64,000 nt of DNA from Fibrobacteria bacterium (GTDB taxonomy: Bacteria; Fibrobacterota; Fibrobacteria; UBA11236): contig JAYTSD010000017.1 in the NCBI GenBank assembly GCA_043745805.1, positions 96,001 through 160,000 of the forward strand. Direction: 5' to 3'. Under the pieces are notes generated by a model, which saw nothing but the letters and a program-made list of their open reading frames with translations, was not told where the DNA came from and ran no database searches. A program made the translations under genes and the position numbers. Below are positions 21,839 through 32,634 of the stretch, piece by piece (the first letter of the stretch is position 1; the number at the start of each line of letters is the position of its first letter).

Positions 21839-22207
21839 GTCAAATTTTTACCTTAGATTTTGACATTAGCGGGACAAATTTTCCCAAAAAACATGGATTC
21901 CATAGATAGAGATAAAGAAAGGAATTAGCTTTTCTCATCGATCATTTTTAAAATAGCATTGGGGAATGTGATACAAAATATCCATTATAATCATCTAAAC
22001 TTTGAAGAACGCTTGCTAAGCCCAAATTTGGGGTTTGGTTTAAAGTTGATATCGATATTAAAAAATCATTGCAAATCCATTGCAAATCAAGGTTTATTAA
22101 AAATTTCAGGAGTATTAAGCCCATGGTTGTCCAACCCTTGGTTTTACCAAATTCAAAGGGACTTAAATTCGGTTCTAACAACAAAATCGACTTCTGTGTC
22201 CAGCTCC

Positions 22208-22708
22208 ATGGTAATGGAAACGGAAAGTCCAAATACTCTTTCTTTGGAAGAGTTGTACAAAAAATACAGTGCTGCGCTTTATTGGGTTTGTTCTCGCTAT
22301 ACACGCAATCGCGAAGATGCTGAGGACATGGTTCATCAAGTTTTTATGAAGGTTCATCTCAATCGCCATCAATTTCAGGGTGGCAGTAGTATTTATACTT
22401 GGATTTATCGCATTGCGGTCAATGAATGCTTGCAAATGCTACGCAAGAAAAAATTTGAAAAAGAGGGAGAATTATTTCCTGGTTTAGAAAATAAGTTGGT
22501 TTATTTTCCTGAACGAACTATGGATGCCAAATTAATTTTGGAAAAAATCACTAAAACGGTTGATATTAAAACTATGGAAATATTATTTCTGCTTTATCTC
22601 GAAGATCATAAACAAGAAGATGTTGCAGAAATGTTGAATATTTCGCGTGCCACGGTTAATCGTAAAATTGCCCACTTTAAAATTTTAATGACACGCTTCA
22701 AATGGTAA
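22208..22708 (+). CDS. ECF RNA polymerase sigma-70 factor
   Basis: Region 2 EDAEDMVHQVF...TWIYRIAVNECL; region 4 QEDVAEMLNISRATVNRKI; start set at ATG 22208 rather than TTG 21959. Confidence 0.92.
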   Translation: MVMETESPNTLSLEELYKKYSAALYWVCSRYTRNREDAEDMVHQVFMKVHLNRHQFQGGSSIYTWIYRIAVNECLQMLRKKKFEKEGELFPGLENKLVYFPERTMDAKLILEKITKTVDIKTMEILFLLYLEDHKQEDVAEMLNISRATVNRKIAHFKILMTRFKW

Positions 22709-23553
22709 GGCCAACTCTCGAATCCGGAAGTGCAGAGATGCCCTCCGAAAAAAACATTCATCCTTCTAGGCTTATTTTAACAAACTTTCTCAATGGGGAT
22801 TTAAACTCTGAGCAACAAAAGGAATTTAATCACCATGTGCTTGGTTGTCTTCAATGCTCACAAATCATATCTGAGGCGCGACAAGTAACCTCCGAGTTCA
22901 CTCAAAAATTTCCAACTTTTGCTTCTCTAGATAGCAAATTTGGAATAAAATATTCATCCCGCTTAAGACCAACCTTTGTAGAAAGGCTGAAGGGGTTATG
23001 GCAAATTTTTGAAAGTAATATTTGCTATGCCATTTCGCCAAAAATCGCGTGGGCCCTTGTGTTGTTTTTTGTTGTAGGCGTAACTTGGATATTCAATTTA
23101 AAGTCTTTAAATACACAAGGTCAATCTTATAAAGGGCAAACTCGCTTCACACTTTTTCGAAACGGACATCAAGTATTGAAAGATACTTTTTTTGCCGAAC
23201 CACTGGATACCTTACAATTAATAATTACTAGTCCTGAACCCGTTTATTATGCAGTGCTATATCAAGATGATACTGCCGCTTTAGAAATTTATTTGCCCGA
23301 GCTGGGAAAAGAAAATTTATCACTGGGTAATGCCCATGGCGAACCCTTGCCGCATAGTTTGATTTTAGATGCAAGTTGGAAAAACGAAATTTTATATTGC
23401 TTATGGGGAAGCAAACCGATTTCCTTGTCTGAAATGACTTTAAATAAACTTTCAAATAGGATAATTAAAATTGATCCAAAAGATTTACGCAATTGGATGG
23501 ACAAGAAAAATATTCACTATCAAGTTTATTACTTAAATAATAGTTTACCATGA
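22702..23553 (+). CDS. Zinc-binding (ZAS/zf-HC2-like) transmembrane anti-sigma factor with extracytoplasmic beta-sandwich (DUF4384-like) domain
   Basis: HVLGCLQC (HxxxCxxC), single TM IAWALVLFFVVGVTWIFNL, overlaps ECF stop. Confidence 0.75.
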   Translation: MVRPTLESGSAEMPSEKNIHPSRLILTNFLNGDLNSEQQKEFNHHVLGCLQCSQIISEARQVTSEFTQKFPTFASLDSKFGIKYSSRLRPTFVERLKGLWQIFESNICYAISPKIAWALVLFFVVGVTWIFNLKSLNTQGQSYKGQTRFTLFRNGHQVLKDTFFAEPLDTLQLIITSPEPVYYAVLYQDDTAALEIYLPELGKENLSLGNAHGEPLPHSLILDASWKNEILYCLWGSKPISLSEMTLNKLSNRIIKIDPKDLRNWMDKKNIHYQVYYLNNSLP

Positions 23554-25130
23554 AATGGCCACACTATAAATTATTGCTGGCTTTGCTTTTTTGTTTTCAT
23601 CCCAGTTATGCATTAATAAAAATGGCCTTGGTAATAGGTAATAATACCGGAATGGATGATGAAAAGCCCTTGCAGTATGCCACGCGCGATGCCAAGCAAA
23701 TTTATGAGACCTTAGGTCAATTAGGAGGAATGGATAAAGGCAAAAGCTATTTATTGTTAGATTTATCCGTTGCCAAAGTAATGACGGCATTACGTGAGGC
23801 CAGTAATCGCATACAAACTTTGCATAAAGAAAAACAAAAAGTACAGCTGCTGATATATTTTTCGGGTCATGGCAGTGAGGATGCTTTGCATTTAAATGGT
23901 GAGAAATTGCCCATTGCACAAATCCGTGAATATTTTACCAGTATGGACGCGGATTTAAAAATTTTAATTGCGGATGCTTGTTATAGTGGGTCATTAATTC
24001 AAGCCAAAGGGGCTAAATTAGGGGCGGTCATTCCCGTTAAATACTCTGATGAATTAAAGGTAAATGGATCTGCTATTTTAACGTCTAGTTCCGCAGGAGA
24101 ATTGTCACAGGAATCTCAAGATTTTCACGGTTCAATTTTTACGCATTATTTTTTAACTGCCATGCGTGGAGCGGCGGATTTTGATCGCGATGGACAAATT
24201 ACTTTATGGGAAGCCTATAACTATACGCAATTGAATCTTCGACGAAAATCTATGACAAATAAAGGTTTTGTACAAAATCCAGGATTCGATATTGATGTAA
24301 ATGGTTCGGATAATGTGATTTTGACACACTTAGATTTAGGTCAAGCTCTGCTAAGTTTCAAGGGCTTTACCGAGGGGCAATATCAGATTTTAGAAGCGAA
24401 TAGCACATTGCAAGTTGCCGAAATAGATTTATCAGGTGGGGAAGGGGTAACTTTAGCATTACCTAAAGCCAATTATTTAGTGTATCGCTCTTCTCAAGGT
24501 AAGGCTTGGGCGGTATGGGCGGATTTGCGGCAAAACAAAATTACAGAAATAAATCCGTCCCTGTTATATCCGATTTCCATGGGCGCTTTAGCCGCAAAAG
24601 GCGGCGATGGAGGCTTAGAAGCTAAAGGCTTGCTAATACCTAGAGAAATAAACTCTTATCACTTAGCCTTGCATTCACGTTTATACCCTTATTTTCCAGG
24701 GCGAAAAGAAACGGCAACGAGTTGGATGCTATCTGCCGAGAGTCAATGGGAAACATGGAGTTTTTTACTCTCAGGAAGTTTTTTACCCACCTTACAAACT
24801 TTAGTAAAGGGTAACCGTTTTACTCAAACTGGATATAGTATTGGCGGAGAATTACGCTATTATTTTTATCCTACGCATAATAGTACTTGGCATTTGGGAC
24901 CGCATTGGGAAAGCTGGTTTTTGCAACAAAATTTAAATGGAAAAACCCTTGGCCAAGGAAATTTACTTGGCACTATGGGAAGCTTGGGTGCAGACTGGAT
25001 AATATTTCATCGATTCACTCTTGGCTTTAACTGGGAGCCTGGTATTTTTTTGCATTATGATAAGGCTGCTATATTACAAAAAGATTTCGCATCTCCAATT
25101 TCAATAGGCGTAACAATGGGTTTATGGTAA
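23550..25130 (+). CDS. Exported caspase-family (peptidase C14) protease with C-terminal probable outer-membrane beta-barrel
   Basis: Signal peptide; ALVIGNN, YFSGHG (His107), IADACYSG (Cys144), GAADFDRDGQIT; amphipathic beta-strand C-terminus ending in Trp. Confidence 0.88.
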   Translation: MKWPHYKLLLALLFCFHPSYALIKMALVIGNNTGMDDEKPLQYATRDAKQIYETLGQLGGMDKGKSYLLLDLSVAKVMTALREASNRIQTLHKEKQKVQLLIYFSGHGSEDALHLNGEKLPIAQIREYFTSMDADLKILIADACYSGSLIQAKGAKLGAVIPVKYSDELKVNGSAILTSSSAGELSQESQDFHGSIFTHYFLTAMRGAADFDRDGQITLWEAYNYTQLNLRRKSMTNKGFVQNPGFDIDVNGSDNVILTHLDLGQALLSFKGFTEGQYQILEANSTLQVAEIDLSGGEGVTLALPKANYLVYRSSQGKAWAVWADLRQNKITEINPSLLYPISMGALAAKGGDGGLEAKGLLIPREINSYHLALHSRLYPYFPGRKETATSWMLSAESQWETWSFLLSGSFLPTLQTLVKGNRFTQTGYSIGGELRYYFYPTHNSTWHLGPHWESWFLQQNLNGKTLGQGNLLGTMGSLGADWIIFHRFTLGFNWEPGIFLHYDKAAILQKDFASPISIGVTMGLW

Positions 25131-27064
25131 TCGCAACCAAGAGCATTAGGTTTCCGTTACTTATAGGTTACTTTTACCTATTAATCACCGGTATTTTTGT
25201 GTGTTCTTGTCTAAAAGAGAATCCAGTAATTTTACCGGAAACAATTTATGATGCCAAAACTTTTTTGCCGCTCGATTCACTTTATCGTTTTGATTCCGTG
25301 ACCATTACCATAATGAATGAAAAGGATATTACGCAACATAAAACTATATGGTTAGCTCCGGTTAAATATTCCTCAGAATTTCCGGTATTCATTTCTGGAG
25401 AACAAGAAAATCTATATCTCGATATTAAAGGTTATAAAAAAATTAAAGGATCATTGCCTTGCTACAAAGCAACAAGTAAACAGGGTAATTATTGGGTAAA
25501 TATTGATACATGTGATATTATTAACAGTATTTTGATTATCGATTCCATAGCATGGTCCGATTCCATTGTAGATTTTGATAGCCTAGATACAGAAAAAAAA
25601 ATCATATTTAATTTAGTTGGAAATAAAATTCATTCCTTAAACCTGACTCCGACTTCGAATTACCTACTCTTATTACCACCCTTTCAATTGGATTCTAATC
25701 ATAAACAAATAGAAATTCGTATTAAAATTATCCGTGATAGTTTGAGCAAGAGCTTGTATTCTACGGCTTATTCCATTACAGATAATGGCCTTAAGGTGGG
25801 GGAAATAAAAATCAAATTCAAAGTTGCAGAAAAGCTACCAGTCATAATATCTCACAAGGACAGTTCAGTAGTAAAATTGAAGGTACTTAATAAAATAGAT
25901 TCACTTCCGGTGTCAGGTGCTAAAATAAATCTGGATGGTAAAGATTTATTGGCGTTAACGGATTTAACGGGAAAAATAAAATTAGATTCGCTGGCCCTTG
26001 GTCAGCATAAGTTTTTTGTCACAATAGCAGATAGATTGGGAATTATTGATTCGATGAATATCACATACTTTGATACTGTGGTTTCATTCTATTTACCTCC
26101 TAAAACCGTATTGCAGAATTTAGCGGTGGGATGGAGCGCACCTAGTTTAGCGAACTTTACAACTTTTCAAAATCAGGCCATCTTTTTAAGTCAAGATATT
26201 CAAAGTTCGGGATTAGTTTTGAAATTTCCACTTAACAATTTGGACCCGCGACTACAAAGCACGATCGAACAAGGAAATAAAACTTTAGCAAATCCACCTG
26301 AAATTTTTGATGCCATTAATTCTGTTGCGGATGCCACTAATCTTTATATTACTTATCCAGATGTAAATAGAATTGGAAAAATAAGTGATTGGCAGAATAC
26401 TAGTGCGGCGAGCAACACCTTACTTGCATTTTCACCTTACGGTTTATTATTGGAAGGAAATAGTCTTTTTAGTATTGGACGTAATCAAAAAGAACAATTG
26501 ACACTAGCGGAATTCAATACAACCGATTTTTCCATTATTAAAATGGATACACTAGGTAACTTTAAATGGGATGAATTAGATATTTCTAATCGTGGACCTA
26601 AAATGGTCTCAACTCCAGATGCGTTTTATGTGGTCGATGGAAATGGACCACAGCAAATTGGGAATCTTATTAAGGTCAGCAAAACTTCACGGAATATTCT
26701 TGTTAGTCAACAAACAAAATCCGCACAAATTTCCGATATTTGTATTTATAAGGACCGAATTTATATCACTTCTCATGGTTCAAGTATTGTGGAAATTTAC
26801 GATTTTAATTTAGTGCCCAGTGGAATAATCAATATTGGAAAATCAGTAGAAAAAATTTCCATTGTGCAGAGTGGCTATTTGCAGGGGACCGGATTTTTGA
26901 CCACCAATGATAATTCAGTGCAGGTGATAAATACAGAAGCTAAATTAGTTATTGGCTCTTTAAGCTTACCCGTTGGGGAGCGATCCAAAAACATTATTTT
27001 CAATGCGGCCATAGCAAAATTAATCGTCACAACGGTTAATAAAATTTATATCGCAGAATTTTAG
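25124..27064 (+). CDS. Putative lipoprotein with carboxypeptidase-regulatory-like Ig domain and C-terminal beta-propeller
   Basis: Hydrophobic leader ending FVCSC; PVSGAKINLDG...TDLTG Ig motif; repeated short beta-strand blades. Confidence 0.65.
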   Translation: MVIATKSIRFPLLIGYFYLLITGIFVCSCLKENPVILPETIYDAKTFLPLDSLYRFDSVTITIMNEKDITQHKTIWLAPVKYSSEFPVFISGEQENLYLDIKGYKKIKGSLPCYKATSKQGNYWVNIDTCDIINSILIIDSIAWSDSIVDFDSLDTEKKIIFNLVGNKIHSLNLTPTSNYLLLLPPFQLDSNHKQIEIRIKIIRDSLSKSLYSTAYSITDNGLKVGEIKIKFKVAEKLPVIISHKDSSVVKLKVLNKIDSLPVSGAKINLDGKDLLALTDLTGKIKLDSLALGQHKFFVTIADRLGIIDSMNITYFDTVVSFYLPPKTVLQNLAVGWSAPSLANFTTFQNQAIFLSQDIQSSGLVLKFPLNNLDPRLQSTIEQGNKTLANPPEIFDAINSVADATNLYITYPDVNRIGKISDWQNTSAASNTLLAFSPYGLLLEGNSLFSIGRNQKEQLTLAEFNTTDFSIIKMDTLGNFKWDELDISNRGPKMVSTPDAFYVVDGNGPQQIGNLIKVSKTSRNILVSQQTKSAQISDICIYKDRIYITSHGSSIVEIYDFNLVPSGIINIGKSVEKISIVQSGYLQGTGFLTTNDNSVQVINTEAKLVIGSLSLPVGERSKNIIFNAAIAKLIVTTVNKIYIAEF

Positions 27065-27108: not shown

Positions 27109-30100
27109 ATGGTAAAAATGCCGGTTGGTTTTTTTTCTAAGGCTTTATCGAAGATCGTTTTCATAAGCGTGATTACACACTGTGCATCGATATATGCGCA
27201 AGAGTTTATAGTACTAAAAGACAATATTCGTAGTTTACAAGATCGTTCTTATAACTCGGCTGAAGTGGGAGAAATGAAAGGGCAAGTATCCTTTTTAGAT
27301 TTCAATTCCGATGGAAATAAAGATTTAGTGTTTTCGGGAAATTGTTGGCCTTCACCTGGGTGCATAGAATTATATCAAAATACAAATGGTGTATTTTCTA
27401 ACACCCATGCCTTTGATAGTCTCGAAAATTATCATTTGCAGGCCGGCGCTTGGGCAGATATTAACCATGATGGTAGCTTAGATTTTGTGACCTATGAGGA
27501 AAGAAATAATATTCGCTTGGCAAAATTTTATACTTACAATGTAACACAAAAAAAAATATTGCCTTTGAATATAAGTTTACCCACGGGTAAATGGACAAAT
27601 TTAAGCTTTAGTTTTTGTGACATTGACAATGATAGCTTTCCTGATTTACTAGTGAGTGGTCTGGTAGATTCTTCGCTTTTTTGGCCGCCATTCACTGAAG
27701 TTTATCATAATGAAAATGGCAAAAGTTTTAAAAGTATGAATATGGGCTTGTTACCTATGTGGAATGCGAATATGGCTTGGGCCGATTTTGATAAGGATGG
27801 ATATTCCGATTTATATATCACCGGAAACACAGGGGTTAAAAATTTTTCTGCGATTTATCCTACCTCCATGGCCACAAGGGTTTATCGTAATAATATCGGC
27901 AAATTAAATTTATACGCAACCTTGCCCAGTTTGGTTTATGGAGGTGCGGCGTGGGGAGATTATGATGGCGATGGAAAATTAGATTTAGTCGTTTCTGGAA
28001 CCCGTATGCCAGGCAATACTCTTCCTGCAACGCTTTTATATAAAAACAATGGTACGGGTTTTGATCTGCAAACGAATACGCCCTTTGATTCCTTATGCTT
28101 TGGATCGGTTTCTTTTGCGGATATGGACAAGGATGGTGATCCCGATCTTTTGTTAACCGGAGAAATTTCCGAAAGTGCACCGCTCACCAAAATCTTTCGC
28201 AATGATAAAAGTGTGTTTGTAGATATGCAATCCAATTTACCTTCCCTCACTCATGGTGTTTCATCGTGGGGCGATTTTGATGGGGACGGAAATATGGATA
28301 TCTTTTTAAGCGGAATAAATGCCAATAAAGAATCCAGCGCACATTTATTTCATAATATTCGTGGTGATTTTGAGCCCTTAAATAGTTTTTCCTCACCTAT
28401 TATTGCCTCAACACTACATTGGATAGATTATGATAATGATAAAAAGTTAGACTTTTTTATTAGCGATAATTCTGAAAGCAAGCTTTATCGGAATATCGGT
28501 AATGGGCAATTTTTAGCAGAGAATACAAATCTTCCTATAGGTTCTACGCAATCCGATTTAGGTGATTTTGATAATGATGGTAAAGTTGATATTGTGATGG
28601 TTGGCACAAACACTGCTACAAATGATGCCGTAACTATTCTTCAAAATAAAGGGGATGGAAATTTTTTAGATACCAAAATAAAAATTTTAGGCACAACTAA
28701 TCCGGGGCTTATAACCATTGACGGCGCTAAATGGGGGGATTATGATAATGATGGAAAATTGGATTTGGTGGTTTGGGGACATGATTATAAAATTGGAAAT
28801 AACCCTTTTACTAAAGTTTTTCATAATGAGGGGGACTGGACTTTTTCTGAATTAACAAAAATTTTTACCGGCATTACTCGCGGTCAAATTTCATGGGGTG
28901 ATTTTAATCGAGATGGTCGATTAGATTTAGCCTTAGCAGGGGATAGTCTTGAGAGCTCTTATACTCCCTTTGTTAAAATTTATCGTAATGAAAATGGAGT
29001 ATTAAATACCACTAATGATAATATTAGTCCATTATCGCATACTTCTTTTGCATGGGGTGATTTTGATAATGATGGGGATCTTGATTTTGCCCTTTCTGGA
29101 GAATACCGTGTAGGATCAGCTTTTGATTCAACCATAACCCGTATTTTTAGGAATAATGGAGGGGTTTTTGAACAATTTGGACAAAGTTTGATCGGTGTTT
29201 TTAATGGCCAAATCTTATGGATAGATGCGGATAATGATGGTGATCTAGATCTAATTATGAATGGGGGTTATCTAGATTCTCCTTATAAAAATGCCCGAAT
29301 TCTACGCAATGAAGGAAATCGTTTTACTGCAATTCCTCCGGTTTTCCCGAATTATTCCCCAACAGTTATGGATGTGGGTGATTTTGATGGCGATGGAAAA
29401 GTTGATTTACTGGTTTCGGGATCAAGTTGGAGTGTTCCCTCAGGAACTTTTATTTATAAAAACACAGTACTCACAGCTAATACTTTGCCTTCAGTTCCCC
29501 CAAATGCCAATGCGACTTTAGGTTTTTCGTCCGTTACTTTAGCCTGGGATAATTCCACCGATAACGAAACTTCTTCTTCCGGTTTGCAGTATAATGTGCA
29601 AGTCGGTAAAGCGAGCGGAGGGTTTGAAATATTATCGAGTGCGTCCCATTCCGATGGAATTCTCAGGGCCAATCAAATGGGTAATGCTTCACATGCAAAT
29701 TTTAAAAATCTTATTGGACTTGCTCCAGGAAAATATTTTTGGAAAGTACAAGCCATAGATAATGCCTTAGGAGGCTCTTCATTTTCGCCGGAAGGGAAGT
29801 TTACCATTGGCATTACTACACCAACTTTGTTGGAAACCGGTGCAGGTAATTCACAAGTGACTTTGAAATGGAAGAAATTGACTGATTCTAATTTCCAGAG
29901 ATATTATCTCTATTACGGCTTAATCACTAATCCTAGCAATAAAATGGATTCTGTATCACTCGCTAATGATACGGTTAAAGTTATTTCGGAATTACAAAAT
30001 GGACAGCTTTATTATTTTCGAGTTTCAGCTATTGATCAAGGGGGAAATCCTAGTGGTTACTCTAATGAATTAACTGCCATACCCGATGGAACGCCTCCCG

Positions 30101-32634
30101 CTATTCCCAGTGGATTGGTCGCAGTGGGTAATGATCGAACGGTTACTTTAAGCTGGAAAGCCAATACCGAAAATGATTTTCTCTGCTATTTCATTTATCA
30201 GCGAGCGTCCAATGGAGCATTATTCCTTATTGATTCTATTGCGAATATTAATCAAGTTTCAAAAACAGTTACGGGATTAAAAAATGGATCGGCTTATGCT
30301 TTTGTAATGTCTGCGGCGGATAAAGTTTTAAATCATAGTGGATTCTCCCAAGAGGTTCTAGCTTCTCCCTTTTATTTAGTGAGTAGCTCATTGAATAATT
30401 TAAACTTTGGAAAAACTCATATTAGTATTTATAAAGATTCGGTATTAATGCTTAATAATTCGAGTTCCTTGCCTGTAACCTTAGATTCAATAGTAATTTC
30501 AAATAGTAATTTTGCTATAACTAGTCCAATAAAGCTGATTCCTGCTAGTGGGCAGCTAATTTTGTCTATAAGGTTCAATTGTCTTCAGTCAATGGGAGGT
30601 GATTTTAATTCTACGTTAAAAATTTATTTTGGAAATTCTACCATCGAAATATCTTTATTGGCAAAAGCTGTGGCTAATCCGTATAGTACAATTGAACAGG
30701 CAAATCCCTCACCTGCAATATGGGATACTACATCCAATATTGCTTTTTTAGCGAGTGCCGATGATTCGGATATTGCTGGCACTGGGGATAAAATTGCATC
30801 CTATTTATGGTCCTCGAATCTTAATGGTATTTTACCAAGTACTAAAAACAGTTTTTTAATACACCCGTCGGGGTTCAAAATCGGTAATCACAAAATCTCT
30901 TTAAGGGTTGTGGATAATGATGGGGATACCTCAGCGATAGTGGAAAAACTTTTAACGATTAAGGGGCGAAAACCTTTTGCCAAAATCGATTCTATAACTC
31001 CCAAGAACCTTATCCTCCGAGGATCAGATAAACCTCATTTTTCATTTACCTCGTATGACCTCGATGAATTAGCAAATTCGGATCATGATAGTTTAGTTAA
31101 TTTTGGAATTTACTCCACTTTACAAGGCAAAATTAGCAGTAATAAAGATACTACCTTGGATTCCATCTCTCTGCAATTAGGTTTACATGGTTTTTATGCA
31201 CGTGCCATTGATAATGAAGGGGATACGGTATTTTCAGATACCCAATGGATTCCTGTTCAAACAGGGGTGGGATTAGCAGTATTAGTTGCGGGCTCACCTT
31301 TTGGTGATTATCGATACCTTTTTGAAAATATCTCCCCCAATTGTAATTGGGCTTATGCCAAATTACGTGAACGAGGATTTACCGATGAATTAATTCAATA
31401 TTTTAATCCAGTGGGTTGGCAAAGTATTGGCGATTCTTTTAGCAATAGTGGTATTGTAGACGTTACCGATATGACGGTAAAAAATTTACGCAAAGCTATA
31501 TTGGATTTGAAGCCTAAGGTTGAAAATGGTGTGCCTTTACTTATATCCTTTTTGGGTCATGGGACCAACAATACTCAATTAGGTAAGTTTTATTTAACTC
31601 CTACTGAGTTTATTACTCCTGATACTTTGAATGCTTGGTTAAATACTTTTACCATTTCTAAATCCATGAATTCTCCTATAGTTATATTATTAGACTTTTG
31701 TTATGCGGGTACTTTTCTCAATAAGTTAAAATCATCTACGCAAAATCGTATTGTAATAGCTTCAGCAGCAGCGGATAGAGTGGCTTATTTTGATGGGGGC
31801 CGATCATTTAGCTATAATATTTTTAAGCAAATTTCCAAAGGCAATAATTTGGCTCAAGCATGGAATACAGCCAATATTTGGTCTGCAAATCTTGGACAAA
31901 ATGCAAGCATCTCATCTAATCCCCAAATGAATGCGAATAGTGATAATAATTACAATGATCTATTAGATATAAATGTATTACAAAACATTTATGTTGGAGG
32001 TAGCCAACAAAATCAGGACTTGGAATCGGAATGGAAAAGTATAGATGGAAGTTATGACAATTTAAAGAATTTGATTTCTTTTAAAGTGATTCCTAAAAAT
32101 TTATCCAAAATAGATAAAGTATGGTACTCCATTTTGACACCCGATTTTGATCCTGCTAATCCCCTTATGCAATCTTTGCACTCCGAAGATATGGCGGTGC
32201 AGGATAGTGGTTTTGTGGGTACTTACACGCTCAAGCCAAATCAAAATGGCGAATTTTTAATCACAGCATATGGATCGGTGGGAGGAAAACAAATTTTACC
32301 TATTTCAAAATCAATTTATACGCTCACCACAGGTATTGGAAATGATTCTGCTTCTAAAATATTTAGTTTAAAACAAAACTTTCCAAATCCCTTCAAAAAC
32401 TTTACCACCATCCCTTTTAATTTAATGCATCAGGGAAATGTGAAATTAATTATTCAAAATTTAAAAGGCGAGAGGGTTAAATCCTTGATTAACACTCATG
32501 TTAACCAAGGAACGCATTTTGTGACTTGGAATGGGTTAAATGAAAACGGCTTCCAAATGCCTGCTGGTCTATATATCTATACTTTAATTGCACCCGATGG
32601 CATTTTGCGAAAGAAGTTTAATCTTCAGAGATAA
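27109..32634 (+). CDS. Large secreted protein: 14 FG-GAP/VCBS repeats, FN3/Ig domains, clan-CD (C13-like) peptidase domain, T9SS/FlgD-like C-terminal domain
   Basis: 14 DxDxDG-type repeats; FN3-like VTLxW...YFRVSAID; ISFLGHG (His1484) and ILLDFCYAG (Cys1531); LKQNFPNPF...VTWNG...AGLYIYTL. Confidence 0.85.
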   Translation: MVKMPVGFFSKALSKIVFISVITHCASIYAQEFIVLKDNIRSLQDRSYNSAEVGEMKGQVSFLDFNSDGNKDLVFSGNCWPSPGCIELYQNTNGVFSNTHAFDSLENYHLQAGAWADINHDGSLDFVTYEERNNIRLAKFYTYNVTQKKILPLNISLPTGKWTNLSFSFCDIDNDSFPDLLVSGLVDSSLFWPPFTEVYHNENGKSFKSMNMGLLPMWNANMAWADFDKDGYSDLYITGNTGVKNFSAIYPTSMATRVYRNNIGKLNLYATLPSLVYGGAAWGDYDGDGKLDLVVSGTRMPGNTLPATLLYKNNGTGFDLQTNTPFDSLCFGSVSFADMDKDGDPDLLLTGEISESAPLTKIFRNDKSVFVDMQSNLPSLTHGVSSWGDFDGDGNMDIFLSGINANKESSAHLFHNIRGDFEPLNSFSSPIIASTLHWIDYDNDKKLDFFISDNSESKLYRNIGNGQFLAENTNLPIGSTQSDLGDFDNDGKVDIVMVGTNTATNDAVTILQNKGDGNFLDTKIKILGTTNPGLITIDGAKWGDYDNDGKLDLVVWGHDYKIGNNPFTKVFHNEGDWTFSELTKIFTGITRGQISWGDFNRDGRLDLALAGDSLESSYTPFVKIYRNENGVLNTTNDNISPLSHTSFAWGDFDNDGDLDFALSGEYRVGSAFDSTITRIFRNNGGVFEQFGQSLIGVFNGQILWIDADNDGDLDLIMNGGYLDSPYKNARILRNEGNRFTAIPPVFPNYSPTVMDVGDFDGDGKVDLLVSGSSWSVPSGTFIYKNTVLTANTLPSVPPNANATLGFSSVTLAWDNSTDNETSSSGLQYNVQVGKASGGFEILSSASHSDGILRANQMGNASHANFKNLIGLAPGKYFWKVQAIDNALGGSSFSPEGKFTIGITTPTLLETGAGNSQVTLKWKKLTDSNFQRYYLYYGLITNPSNKMDSVSLANDTVKVISELQNGQLYYFRVSAIDQGGNPSGYSNELTAIPDGTPPAIPSGLVAVGNDRTVTLSWKANTENDFLCYFIYQRASNGALFLIDSIANINQVSKTVTGLKNGSAYAFVMSAADKVLNHSGFSQEVLASPFYLVSSSLNNLNFGKTHISIYKDSVLMLNNSSSLPVTLDSIVISNSNFAITSPIKLIPASGQLILSIRFNCLQSMGGDFNSTLKIYFGNSTIEISLLAKAVANPYSTIEQANPSPAIWDTTSNIAFLASADDSDIAGTGDKIASYLWSSNLNGILPSTKNSFLIHPSGFKIGNHKISLRVVDNDGDTSAIVEKLLTIKGRKPFAKIDSITPKNLILRGSDKPHFSFTSYDLDELANSDHDSLVNFGIYSTLQGKISSNKDTTLDSISLQLGLHGFYARAIDNEGDTVFSDTQWIPVQTGVGLAVLVAGSPFGDYRYLFENISPNCNWAYAKLRERGFTDELIQYFNPVGWQSIGDSFSNSGIVDVTDMTVKNLRKAILDLKPKVENGVPLLISFLGHGTNNTQLGKFYLTPTEFITPDTLNAWLNTFTISKSMNSPIVILLDFCYAGTFLNKLKSSTQNRIVIASAAADRVAYFDGGRSFSYNIFKQISKGNNLAQAWNTANIWSANLGQNASISSNPQMNANSDNNYNDLLDINVLQNIYVGGSQQNQDLESEWKSIDGSYDNLKNLISFKVIPKNLSKIDKVWYSILTPDFDPANPLMQSLHSEDMAVQDSGFVGTYTLKPNQNGEFLITAYGSVGGKQILPISKSIYTLTTGIGNDSASKIFSLKQNFPNPFKNFTTIPFNLMHQGNVKLIIQNLKGERVKSLINTHVNQGTHFVTWNGLNENGFQMPAGLYIYTLIAPDGILRKKFNLQR

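Follow-up and report, generated by a model that had tools for sequence, protein, structure and literature searches.

We report that an open reading frame (ORF) at positions 23550..25130 (+ strand) of a 64,000-nt stretch from a Fibrobacteria bacterium (GenBank assembly GCA_043745805.1, contig JAYTSD010000017.1, positions 96,001 to 160,000; the whole stretch is called the window below) encodes a caspase homolog of 526 aa that is predicted to be exported and anchored in the outer membrane by its own β-barrel. The gene belongs to a conserved set in which it follows genes for a sigma factor of the extracytoplasmic function (ECF) type and an anti-sigma-like protein. We put at about an even chance the reading that the caspase, tethered to the outer membrane and possibly gated by Ca2+, acts on that anti-sigma factor as a Lys-specific site-1 protease. 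Regulated proteolysis of anti-sigma factors is a known kind of system; what is new here is a pattern of three AKG sites, shared between the putative enzyme and its putative substrate, and an EF-hand-type loop in the enzyme. The sigma/anti-sigma/caspase module offers a concrete and testable enzyme-substrate pair, with a proposed cut A-K↓G in the anti-sigma linker, a predicted cofactor, Ca2+, and a predicted location, tethered under the outer membrane.

The protein consists of five parts: a Sec-type signal peptide, a C14 domain, an EF-hand-type loop, a β-sandwich and a C-terminal domain (residues 365-526). Judged by eye, the N-terminus MKWPHYKLLLALLFCFHPSYA, with predicted cleavage after SYA and before L, has a basic n-region, a hydrophobic core of 9 residues and small residues at -3 and -1, and the signal peptide would comprise residues 1-21 (23550..23612). 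In every ortholog the N-terminus is hydrophobic, closing with small residues directly ahead of the first strand; in the AlphaFold2 (AF2) model, residues 4-15 are helical and the first caspase strand begins at residue 22. Relatives were collected by a word-indexed search (162 at E<=0.001, 120 of them listed), and an alignment of 50 of them served as input for AF2 and for the conservation counts given below. Among relatives P0002 to P0042, identity is 39-51% in the 40 of 41 that span 90% or more of the query; relatives with a source name are proteins of Fibrobacterota, Fibrobacteria or Fibrobacteres metagenome-assembled genomes. The full-length model has a mean per-residue confidence (pLDDT) of 84.5, and values below 50 occur solely at residues 146-172 and 350-363.

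The C14 caspase/metacaspase-like protease domain occupies residues 22-245 (23613..24284). Pfam Peptidase_C14 (PF00656) matches residues 24-245 (E 5.8e-17; 62.6 bits, cut-off 21.4), covering positions 2-222 of the 233 in the profile, and all 50 relatives match it as well; the NCBIfam model 'caspase, EACC1-associated type' (caspase_w_EACC1) is matched below its threshold (67 bits, cut-off 140). The catalytic dyad, His107 (nt 23868-23870) and Cys144 (nt 23979-23981), is invariant in 50/50 relatives, as are D47, D142, K153, G154, D210, E221, K350 and G351. On the predicted model, residues 19-263 have the caspase-hemoglobinase fold: alignment with VIA-align against 48,161 PDB representatives matches them to metacaspase-4 (AtMC4 6w8r, Z 19.4, 208 residues aligned, rmsd 3.3), a pro-caspase (2nn3, Z 19.2), Yca1 (4f6p, Z 15.9) and TbMCA2 (4af8, Z 13.1), and a His/Cys dyad is common to these metacaspases and the present protein. 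In contrast to the fold, sequence similarity to metacaspases is marginal (best profile E 1.8e-4); phmmer, run with the caspase domain on PDB sequences, returned 0 hits, and a family profile was needed to obtain matches. In the profile alignment, D47, S105-G-H107 and D142-x-C144 fall on the metacaspase motifs LRGCxND, YSGHG and DSCHSG; this alignment covers the p20 part alone (profile positions 17-107 and 136-165), whereas the fold match extends over residues 19-263. Metacaspases proper, as distinct from orthocaspases, have a recognisable p10 domain with a Ca2+-binding Asp. The first-pass annotation of this DNA had proposed a caspase domain behind a signal peptide, and both proposals stand, the former on the Pfam match and the invariant dyad, the latter on the Sec-type features and the position of the first strand. 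With the dyad intact and an export signal present, the sequence argues for an enzyme that is neither catalytically inactive nor cytoplasmic.

The same annotation had described a β-rich linker after the protease and a probable outer-membrane barrel at the C-terminus. The linker is modelled confidently as a β-sandwich of nine short strands (residues ~250-345, 24297..24584; pLDDT roughly 87-96), for which no Pfam match was found at E<=10 and the best Protein Atlas score, 0.77, is a lead only. It is followed by a flexible tether (residues 346-364, 24585..24641), in which K350-G351 lies at nt 24597-24602, and by residues 365-526 (24642..25127), which are predicted to form an 8-stranded outer-membrane-type β-barrel. 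When residues 363-526 were folded alone, AF2 returned eight long antiparallel strands (pLDDT 95.0, pTM 0.86) of 10-22 residues, with interstrand connections of 2-9 residues on both sides in the model; the hydrophobic strands listed in the first-pass annotation correspond to β4 to β8. A Foldseek search of the barrel against the PDB gave 53 matches at E<=0.001, among them OmpA (9fzc, E 6.3e-8), NspA (1p4t, E 2.4e-7) and OmpX (1qj9, E 4.7e-6), and all those listed are outer-membrane barrels or porins, including Ail, OmpW and OprF. VIA-align of residues 362-526 gave a designed transmembrane barrel (6x9z, Z 17.9, rmsd 1.7, 119 aligned), the N-terminal domain of OprF (4rlc, 17.4), NspA (1p4t, 17.2), OmpA (3nb3, 16.7) and OmpW (2f1t, 16.1). 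The strands are two-faced, hydrophobic on one face and small or polar on the other, as in the last strand, with I-I-V-M-L against S-G-T-G. The AlphaFold check that had been suggested for the C-terminus thus yielded a barrel rather than a soluble domain, with top matches of the outer-membrane protein (OMP) class, and structure prediction and fold search support an architecture in which a caspase-like domain, exported, is linked to a β-barrel of the outer-membrane type. A type V autotransporter was considered and ruled out, the barrel having 8 strands instead of 12 and its best matches being 8-stranded.

The predicted fold and long strands are those of the OmpA N-terminal domain, OmpX/Ail, NspA, OmpW and the OprF N-terminal domain; the present barrel differs from these in having no sequence-family match and very short loops on both sides. 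OmpA, moreover, carries a C-terminal peptidoglycan-binding domain, whereas here the barrel is itself C-terminal and carries a protease. Eight-stranded barrels of the OmpA/OmpX type have both termini in the periplasm. From the even strand number and this known topology, the protease would hang into the periplasm from the outer membrane, because both ends of an 8-stranded barrel are periplasmic. The genome encodes Omp85/BamA. With connections of no more than 2-9 residues on either side, the barrel resembles an anchor and not a receptor. Its most conserved stretch, PRxYxxFPGR, covers the last part of strand 1 plus the connection that follows it, and the FPGR turn within it (residues 383-386, window 24696-24707) would face outward if the standard topology holds.

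The barrel represents a narrow sequence family, because a full phmmer search of 1.84 billion representatives with the C-terminal part matched 13 proteins at E<=0.001. The word-indexed search with the C-terminal 281 aa matched solely the caspase protein itself, and in a sample of 201 genomes of the phylum the full-length caspase matches with the barrel are confined to one genus of the same family. A hidden Markov model of the barrel matches six close orthologs strongly and 14 distant homologs weakly, three of these reaching E<=5e-6 and the others having E>=0.017. OMP family matches in the relatives amount to PF13568 (OMP_b-brl_2) in 1 of 50 (E 3.3e-4); a distant deltaproteobacterial homolog, P0090, carries PF13505 (OMP_b-brl), and Pfam finds no OMP family in the seven distant phylum homologs scanned. 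The outer-membrane β-signal is C-terminal and ends in an aromatic residue. The earlier observation of an aromatic last residue holds for this protein, which ends in W526, but not for most of the 50 relatives, 14 of which end in F or W; 22 others end in P with an aromatic residue at -3 (R[YF]GP). All 14 of the more distant phylum homologs fetched end in F, and these F-terminated C-termini are possible barrels.

The connection of the caspase to signalling comes from its genetic context, which was absent from the first-pass annotation. The operon order is ECF sigma factor, zinc-type single-pass anti-sigma factor, caspase, lipoprotein and giant surface protein of the type IX secretion system (T9SS). 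The first four genes overlap by 7, 4 and 7 nt in turn, the caspase ATG overlapping the stop codon of the gene upstream (ATGA), and a 44-nt gap then precedes the giant protein. In the 201 phylum genomes, searched at a caspase threshold of E<=1e-20, the caspase clade is present in 145 (the count and one partial ortholog include genome G194). Twenty caspase-centred loci were fetched from 18 genomes of the phylum, and in 20/20 a sigma factor gene is followed by an ORF in the anti-sigma position and then by the caspase gene. The sigma factor was identified by tblastn in 19 loci and by Pfam in the other (L050), and the anti-sigma factor by tblastn in 15; the intervening ORF is of 239-333 aa in 19/20 loci, and in L034 the region is split in two in the ORF call and was left out of the alignments. 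In the reverse direction, a profile of the anti-sigma protein matches 152 of the 201 genomes, and of the 30 anti-sigma-centred loci returned, 29 have a caspase domain immediately downstream, the exception being in G194. Genomes without a match for one protein tend to lack the other, in that 17 of the 20 listed are the same genomes. Because the triad is linked in 20/20 and 29/30 loci and its genes overlap, we take the caspase to be coupled to the sigma/anti-sigma pair, and we regard the association as strong enough to trust. The first-pass annotation had also proposed that the protein is placed to relay an external signal inward. The signalling part of that proposal gains from the conserved ECF sigma/anti-sigma operon; the external part does not, as the barrel has connections of 2-9 residues and no surface receptor is visible.

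The same distribution bears on the idea that the enzyme is a cell-suicide or anti-phage effector, that is, a death or defence protease released or activated upon infection. Caspase-fold proteases are found in the CBASS and type III-E CRISPR systems, and the regulon of the Myxococcus xanthus ECF sigma factor DdvS is described as a defence island (PMC11506125). The present protein itself has a weak match to the PADLOC 'caspase' model (E 6e-5) in addition to the sub-threshold caspase_w_EACC1 match noted above. Presence in 145 of 201 phylum genomes, however, is unlike the patchy occurrence of defence islands, and PADLOC recognised no defence genes among the five operon proteins beyond such weak generic matches. 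The neighbours instead encode envelope and surface proteins, and an exported enzyme would be kept away from cytoplasmic targets, so that we consider a role in death or defence very improbable.

The sigma factor of the window (22208..22708, + strand, 166 aa) is recognised by Pfam (Sigma70_r2, E 9.8e-16; Sigma70_r4_2, E 2.1e-6) and by TIGR02937, sigma70-ECF (78.5 bits, cut-off 42.9). Its ORF is listed from a TTG at 21959 and is probably over-extended; the ATG at 22208 was chosen by reference to orthologs of 160-200 aa. The next gene (22702..23553, + strand) encodes a single-pass anti-sigma-like protein of 283 aa, assigned by motif, hydropathy and its position next to the sigma gene. It has an H45x3C49x2C52 motif (H45VLGC49LQC52, nt 22834-22857), a transmembrane helix at residues ~113-133 (nt 23038-23100) and a periplasmic β-rich domain at residues 146-283, and between the last two lies K144-G145 (nt 23131-23136). 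An Hx3Cx2C motif, a single transmembrane helix and a gene beside an ECF sigma gene are the features of class I zinc anti-sigma (ZAS) proteins, and all are present here. Among 20 anti-sigma orthologs, zf-HC2 matches 6 (best E 4.7e-10), and of 19 fetched orthologs amenable to a motif scan, 10 lack Hx3Cx2C. DUF4384 (PF14326) gave no match for this anti-sigma protein; 2 of the 20 orthologs match it below the cut-off (best E 0.0035).

A second element of interest is the loop at residues 210-221 (nt 24177-24212) of the caspase, D210-F-D-R-D-G-Q-I-T-L-W-E221, which conforms to the canonical 12-residue EF-hand pattern DxDxDGxIxxxE and in the AF2 model sits between helices 196-208 and 219-236. Conservation in the 50 relatives is high at D210, L219 and E221 (50/50 each), D214 (49/50), D212 (47/50) and G215 (46/50), and the strict pattern occurs in 90 of the 120 listed homologs as compared with 1 of 2400 shuffled sequences. 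The first-pass annotation had pointed to this loop, and its EF-hand-like character is borne out. No Pfam family, EF-hand included, matches residues 191-247 at E<=10, and the protein has one such loop with no second EF-hand to pair with it; the loop is thus EF-hand-like but lies outside the paired EF-hand domain family. A dependence of the caspase on Ca2+ is plausible from the conserved canonical loop. Ca2+ dependence is established for the metacaspase AtMC4, as described in PMC7206013; in contrast to metacaspases, the putative Ca2+ site here is a single EF-hand-type loop rather than an Asp cluster, and the enzyme is exported and membrane-anchored.

The enzyme and its proposed substrate have in common a KG dipeptide, which occurs at three sites. 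The first, K153-G154 (nt 24006-24011), lies 9 residues past the catalytic Cys in the disordered loop of residues 146-172 and is found in 50/50 relatives; more broadly, KG follows the DxC motif by <=14 residues in 119/119 listed homologs having DxC. Caspases in general carry an intersubunit cut in the loop after the catalytic Cys. The second, K350-G351, is also found in 50/50 relatives and lies in the disordered tether ahead of the barrel, so that both caspase sites fall in the two segments of the model with pLDDT below 50. The tether KG recurs in the distant deltaproteobacterial homolog P0090, where the hhalign alignment takes in the caspase and middle domains, ends at the KG and leaves out the barrels. 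The third, K144-G145 of the anti-sigma protein, lies after the transmembrane helix, just ahead of the first periplasmic strand, and is conserved at 18/20 (K144) and 20/20 (G145) in an alignment whose mean column identity is 26%; ortholog L050 has IKG within an insertion. At all three sites the commonest residue before Lys is Ala (27/50, 32/50 and 10/20, respectively). The caspase and anti-sigma families have no domain homology in common by hhalign.

The predicted specificity agrees with these sites. Metacaspase S1 pockets contain two acidic residues, Asp95 and Asp211 in TbMC2, as described in PMC6426788, and Lys225 of AtMC4 sits in a pocket containing Asp137, as described in PMC7206013. In the profile alignment, the invariant D47 and D142 fall at both Asp positions that accommodate a basic P1 residue in metacaspases, and the S1 pocket would accordingly be acidic as in Lys/Arg-specific metacaspases, with specificity for Lys as the prediction. 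Two Asp at the S1 position and a Lys in a flexible linker as self-processing site are further points of likeness to metacaspases.

The KG sites could also be read in terms of binding. In this alternative, the (A)KG linker of the anti-sigma protein would be held uncut in the active site as a pseudo-substrate, or would be cut constitutively with the pieces staying together, and the pair would bridge both membranes; loss of this contact, for example upon a change in envelope spacing or damage to the outer membrane, would then serve as the signal in place of a triggered cut. In AtMC4 the linker Lys fills the S1 pocket as a self-inhibitor (PMC7206013), self-cleaved anti-sigma factors whose pieces remain associated are cited in PMC11506125, and both partners here have short flexible tethers extending from opposite membranes. 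The invariance of the dyad in 50/50 relatives nevertheless argues that catalysis matters. A complex prediction with caspase residues 22-350 and anti-sigma residues 133-283 scored 0.01 against a mark of 0.32, which in a run without controls speaks neither for nor against binding. We regard docking of this kind as distinctly unlikely.

Under the reading that we prefer, that of a site-1 protease, a possible scenario is as follows. Sec would export the caspase protein, BAM would insert the barrel, and the cut at K153-G154 would probably serve for self-activation, possibly gated by Ca2+ at the single EF-hand-type loop. The active caspase would cut (A)K-G at K144 in the short periplasmic linker of the anti-sigma protein, removing its periplasmic domain as site-1 cleavage, and an RseP-type protease would complete the degradation and free the sigma factor, which would in turn drive the operon, lipoprotein and giant T9SS surface protein included. 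A cut at K350-G351 could free the protease from its outer-membrane anchor. Because the barrel is without receptor loops, the input is more likely to be an envelope condition, Ca2+ or the lipoprotein than a surface ligand. The genome does encode an M50/RseP-type protease (E 2.7e-63), although this adds little, since the M50 family is present in all 14 control genomes. The topology, specificity, cleavage events and regulon of this scenario are what we infer, and the predicted architecture, the gene linkage and the conservation of the motif are the observations on which it draws. We advance tentatively, as a possibility, the broadest form of the proposal, an envelope-spanning caspase relay that is Ca2+-gated and Lys-specific, that combines self-activation, self-release and the anti-sigma cut at three AKG sites, and that acts as dedicated site-1 protease of an ECF sigma factor in most of the Fibrobacterota searched and, going by source names, in Myxococcota and other phyla.

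Several points weigh against the site-1 protease reading. The membrane nature of the barrel is well supported but is that of a predicted model; soluble 8-stranded barrels also align to the C-terminal domain, at Z 13.5 and below, and at E<=10 neither residues 246-526 nor residues 351-526 match an OMP family of Pfam. The anti-sigma protein falls below every Pfam cut-off, zf-HC2 included (E 0.13; 12.8 bits against 22.2). With regard to the motif, ortholog L040 of the anti-sigma protein reads K-A-G; the sole match of hhalign between the two families pairs the AKG of the tether with that of the anti-sigma protein and falls short of significance (E 0.35, 15 columns); and since motifs are kept in kin by descent, the conservation is evidence of constraint and not of cleavage. 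The KG beside the catalytic Cys in every homolog could be a structural feature. Finally, no conserved sigma-dependent promoter was found, there being no motif common to most of the loci searched.

The closest parallel among known systems is DdvS/DdvA of M. xanthus, in which an ECF sigma factor is paired with a transmembrane zinc anti-sigma factor that has a periplasmic TPR-CHAT caspase-fold domain (PMC6061681, PMC11506125). The authors of that work propose that the CHAT domain is DdvA's own site-1 protease, cleaving the juxtamembrane linker before RseP acts, and as described in PMC11506125 the signal and the cleavage are still unproven. Common to both systems is a periplasmic caspase-fold His/Cys module tied to an ECF sigma factor and a zinc single-pass anti-sigma factor; the proposed site-1-type cleavage of a juxtamembrane linker followed by RseP is likewise the same, and the DdvS operon also encodes an unknown protein and a clan-CD (C25) peptidase. 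In contrast to the CHAT/TPR module fused to DdvA, the protease here is a separate C14-type protein with its own outer-membrane barrel anchor, an EF-hand-type loop and a KG motif shared with the anti-sigma protein, and the operon here encodes surface proteins and no recognised defence genes.

The gene association itself has been noted before. Asplund-Samuelsson et al. (2012; PMC3501461) reported operons of sigma-70-family factors and metacaspases in M. xanthus, other Deltaproteobacteria, Ralstonia and Fibrobacter. Theirs is the same sigma/metacaspase association, described without an anti-sigma partner, barrel, motif or mechanism, and the words 'barrel' and 'periplasm' are absent from the main text of that paper. 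Our literature search turned up no paper that treats a caspase homolog anchored in the outer membrane or a sigma/anti-sigma/caspase triad, and no functional study of the sigma/metacaspase gene set. The main text of the ECF re-classification (PMC7826278) mentions no caspase, CHAT, DUF4384 or Fibrobacter, while its supplementary group tables could list such context.

The proposed cascade resembles that of RpoE-RseA with DegS and RseP, the example of regulated intramembrane proteolysis summarised in PMC11506125. In both, a periplasmic site-1 cut of a single-pass anti-sigma factor would shed a bulky domain and license an M50 site-2 protease; however, DegS is a serine protease anchored in the inner membrane and activated by OMP C-termini, whereas the candidate here is a caspase-fold cysteine protease that the operon itself encodes and that has an outer-membrane tether. 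FecA/FecR/FecI provides another case in which an outer-membrane barrel is coupled to a periplasm-spanning anti-sigma factor and an ECF sigma factor. FecA is no protease but a TonB-dependent transporter of 22 strands that possesses a ligand site along with a signalling domain; the likeness lies in the combination of outer-membrane barrel, anti-sigma and ECF sigma, and the barrel here differs in having 8 strands and no sizeable loops. We know of no first-cut protease of the anti-sigma factor for most ECF groups, and to our knowledge thousands of bacterial caspase homologs have been catalogued and few have been given a substrate or role. If the proposal is true, it would add a new class of anti-sigma site-1 protease that complements the case of DdvA, and it would link caspase-fold proteases to ordinary envelope signalling and not to cell death.

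Downstream of the triad in the window are two further genes, which are relevant to the possibility that the caspase is an output rather than a regulator. The first (25124..27064, + strand), overlapping the caspase gene by 7 nt, encodes a lipoprotein-like protein of 646 aa with no Pfam or NCBIfam family match. In 5 of 6 close ortholog loci the caspase gene is followed by a homolog of this gene (L034 instead has a homologous piece upstream of the caspase gene), and a lipobox Cys is present in all five homologs (LTAC, LASC, LGGC, ALGC and LWGC); the protein may be a partner or sensor of the caspase. A weak β-propeller-like match was seen at residues ~516-562 (E 0.013). The second gene (27109..32634, + strand) encodes a giant secreted protein of 1841 aa with 10 FG-GAP-like repeats (FG-GAP_3, E 2.1e-65), fn3 (E 4.8e-12), a clan-CD-like module (Peptidase_C13, a weak match at E 0.0086) and a T9SS tail (Por_Secre_tail, 21.5 bits, cut-off 23); of 6 ortholog loci, two (L032 and L037) have a homolog downstream. 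This second clan-CD-like module of the operon has GHG at residue 1483 and DFCYAG at 1529, and going by these motifs the operon may specify two proteases of the caspase fold, the one periplasmic and the other secreted.

It is conceivable that the sigma/anti-sigma pair senses some other signal and that the caspase is a member of the regulon, acting in the periplasm as a maturase or in quality control of the lipoprotein and the T9SS cargo. The overlap and co-occurrence of the lipoprotein and caspase genes would fit such a role, as would the giant protein, a T9SS-type cargo that must cross the periplasm, and PMC11506125 describes the DdvS operon, too, as having an unknown protein and a C25-type peptidase. 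On the other hand, neither the lipoprotein nor the giant protein is kept beyond the closest orthologs, whereas the triad is maintained throughout the two sets of loci, and an output role leaves the conserved KG in the anti-sigma linker unexplained. We consider it unlikely.

With respect to regulation of the operon, a weak candidate ECF-type promoter, CCAAAT-N15-TCGGT (22147..22173, + strand), lies ~35 nt upstream of the sigma ATG and could be an autoregulated promoter of the operon. CCAAAT-N13-19-TCGG has this single match in the window, counting both strands, and a looser CCAAA...TCGG is found upstream of the sigma gene in 4 of 7 close loci (the window and three orthologs).

Some variants of the triad deserve mention. 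The genome of the window contains a second triad on another contig (C44, locus L002, 502-3991, - strand). Its caspase, of 691 aa, carries an extended array of GLQxGxxN-type repeats that separates the protease from a hydrophobic C-terminus, and its anti-sigma protein has LKG after the transmembrane helix and gives the best match to DUF4384 observed, at E 2.8e-4 (21.3 bits, cut-off 27). In one genus (loci L073-L082 and L050), the caspase homolog is of ~757 aa and has a long stretch of additional sequence ahead of a C-terminus ending in F, and the sigma factor is too diverged to be found by tblastn with the sigma factor of the window, while being a clear ECF sigma factor by Pfam. Lastly, four sediment-metagenome DNA runs from one study contain the stretch, and no RNA run is listed for it.

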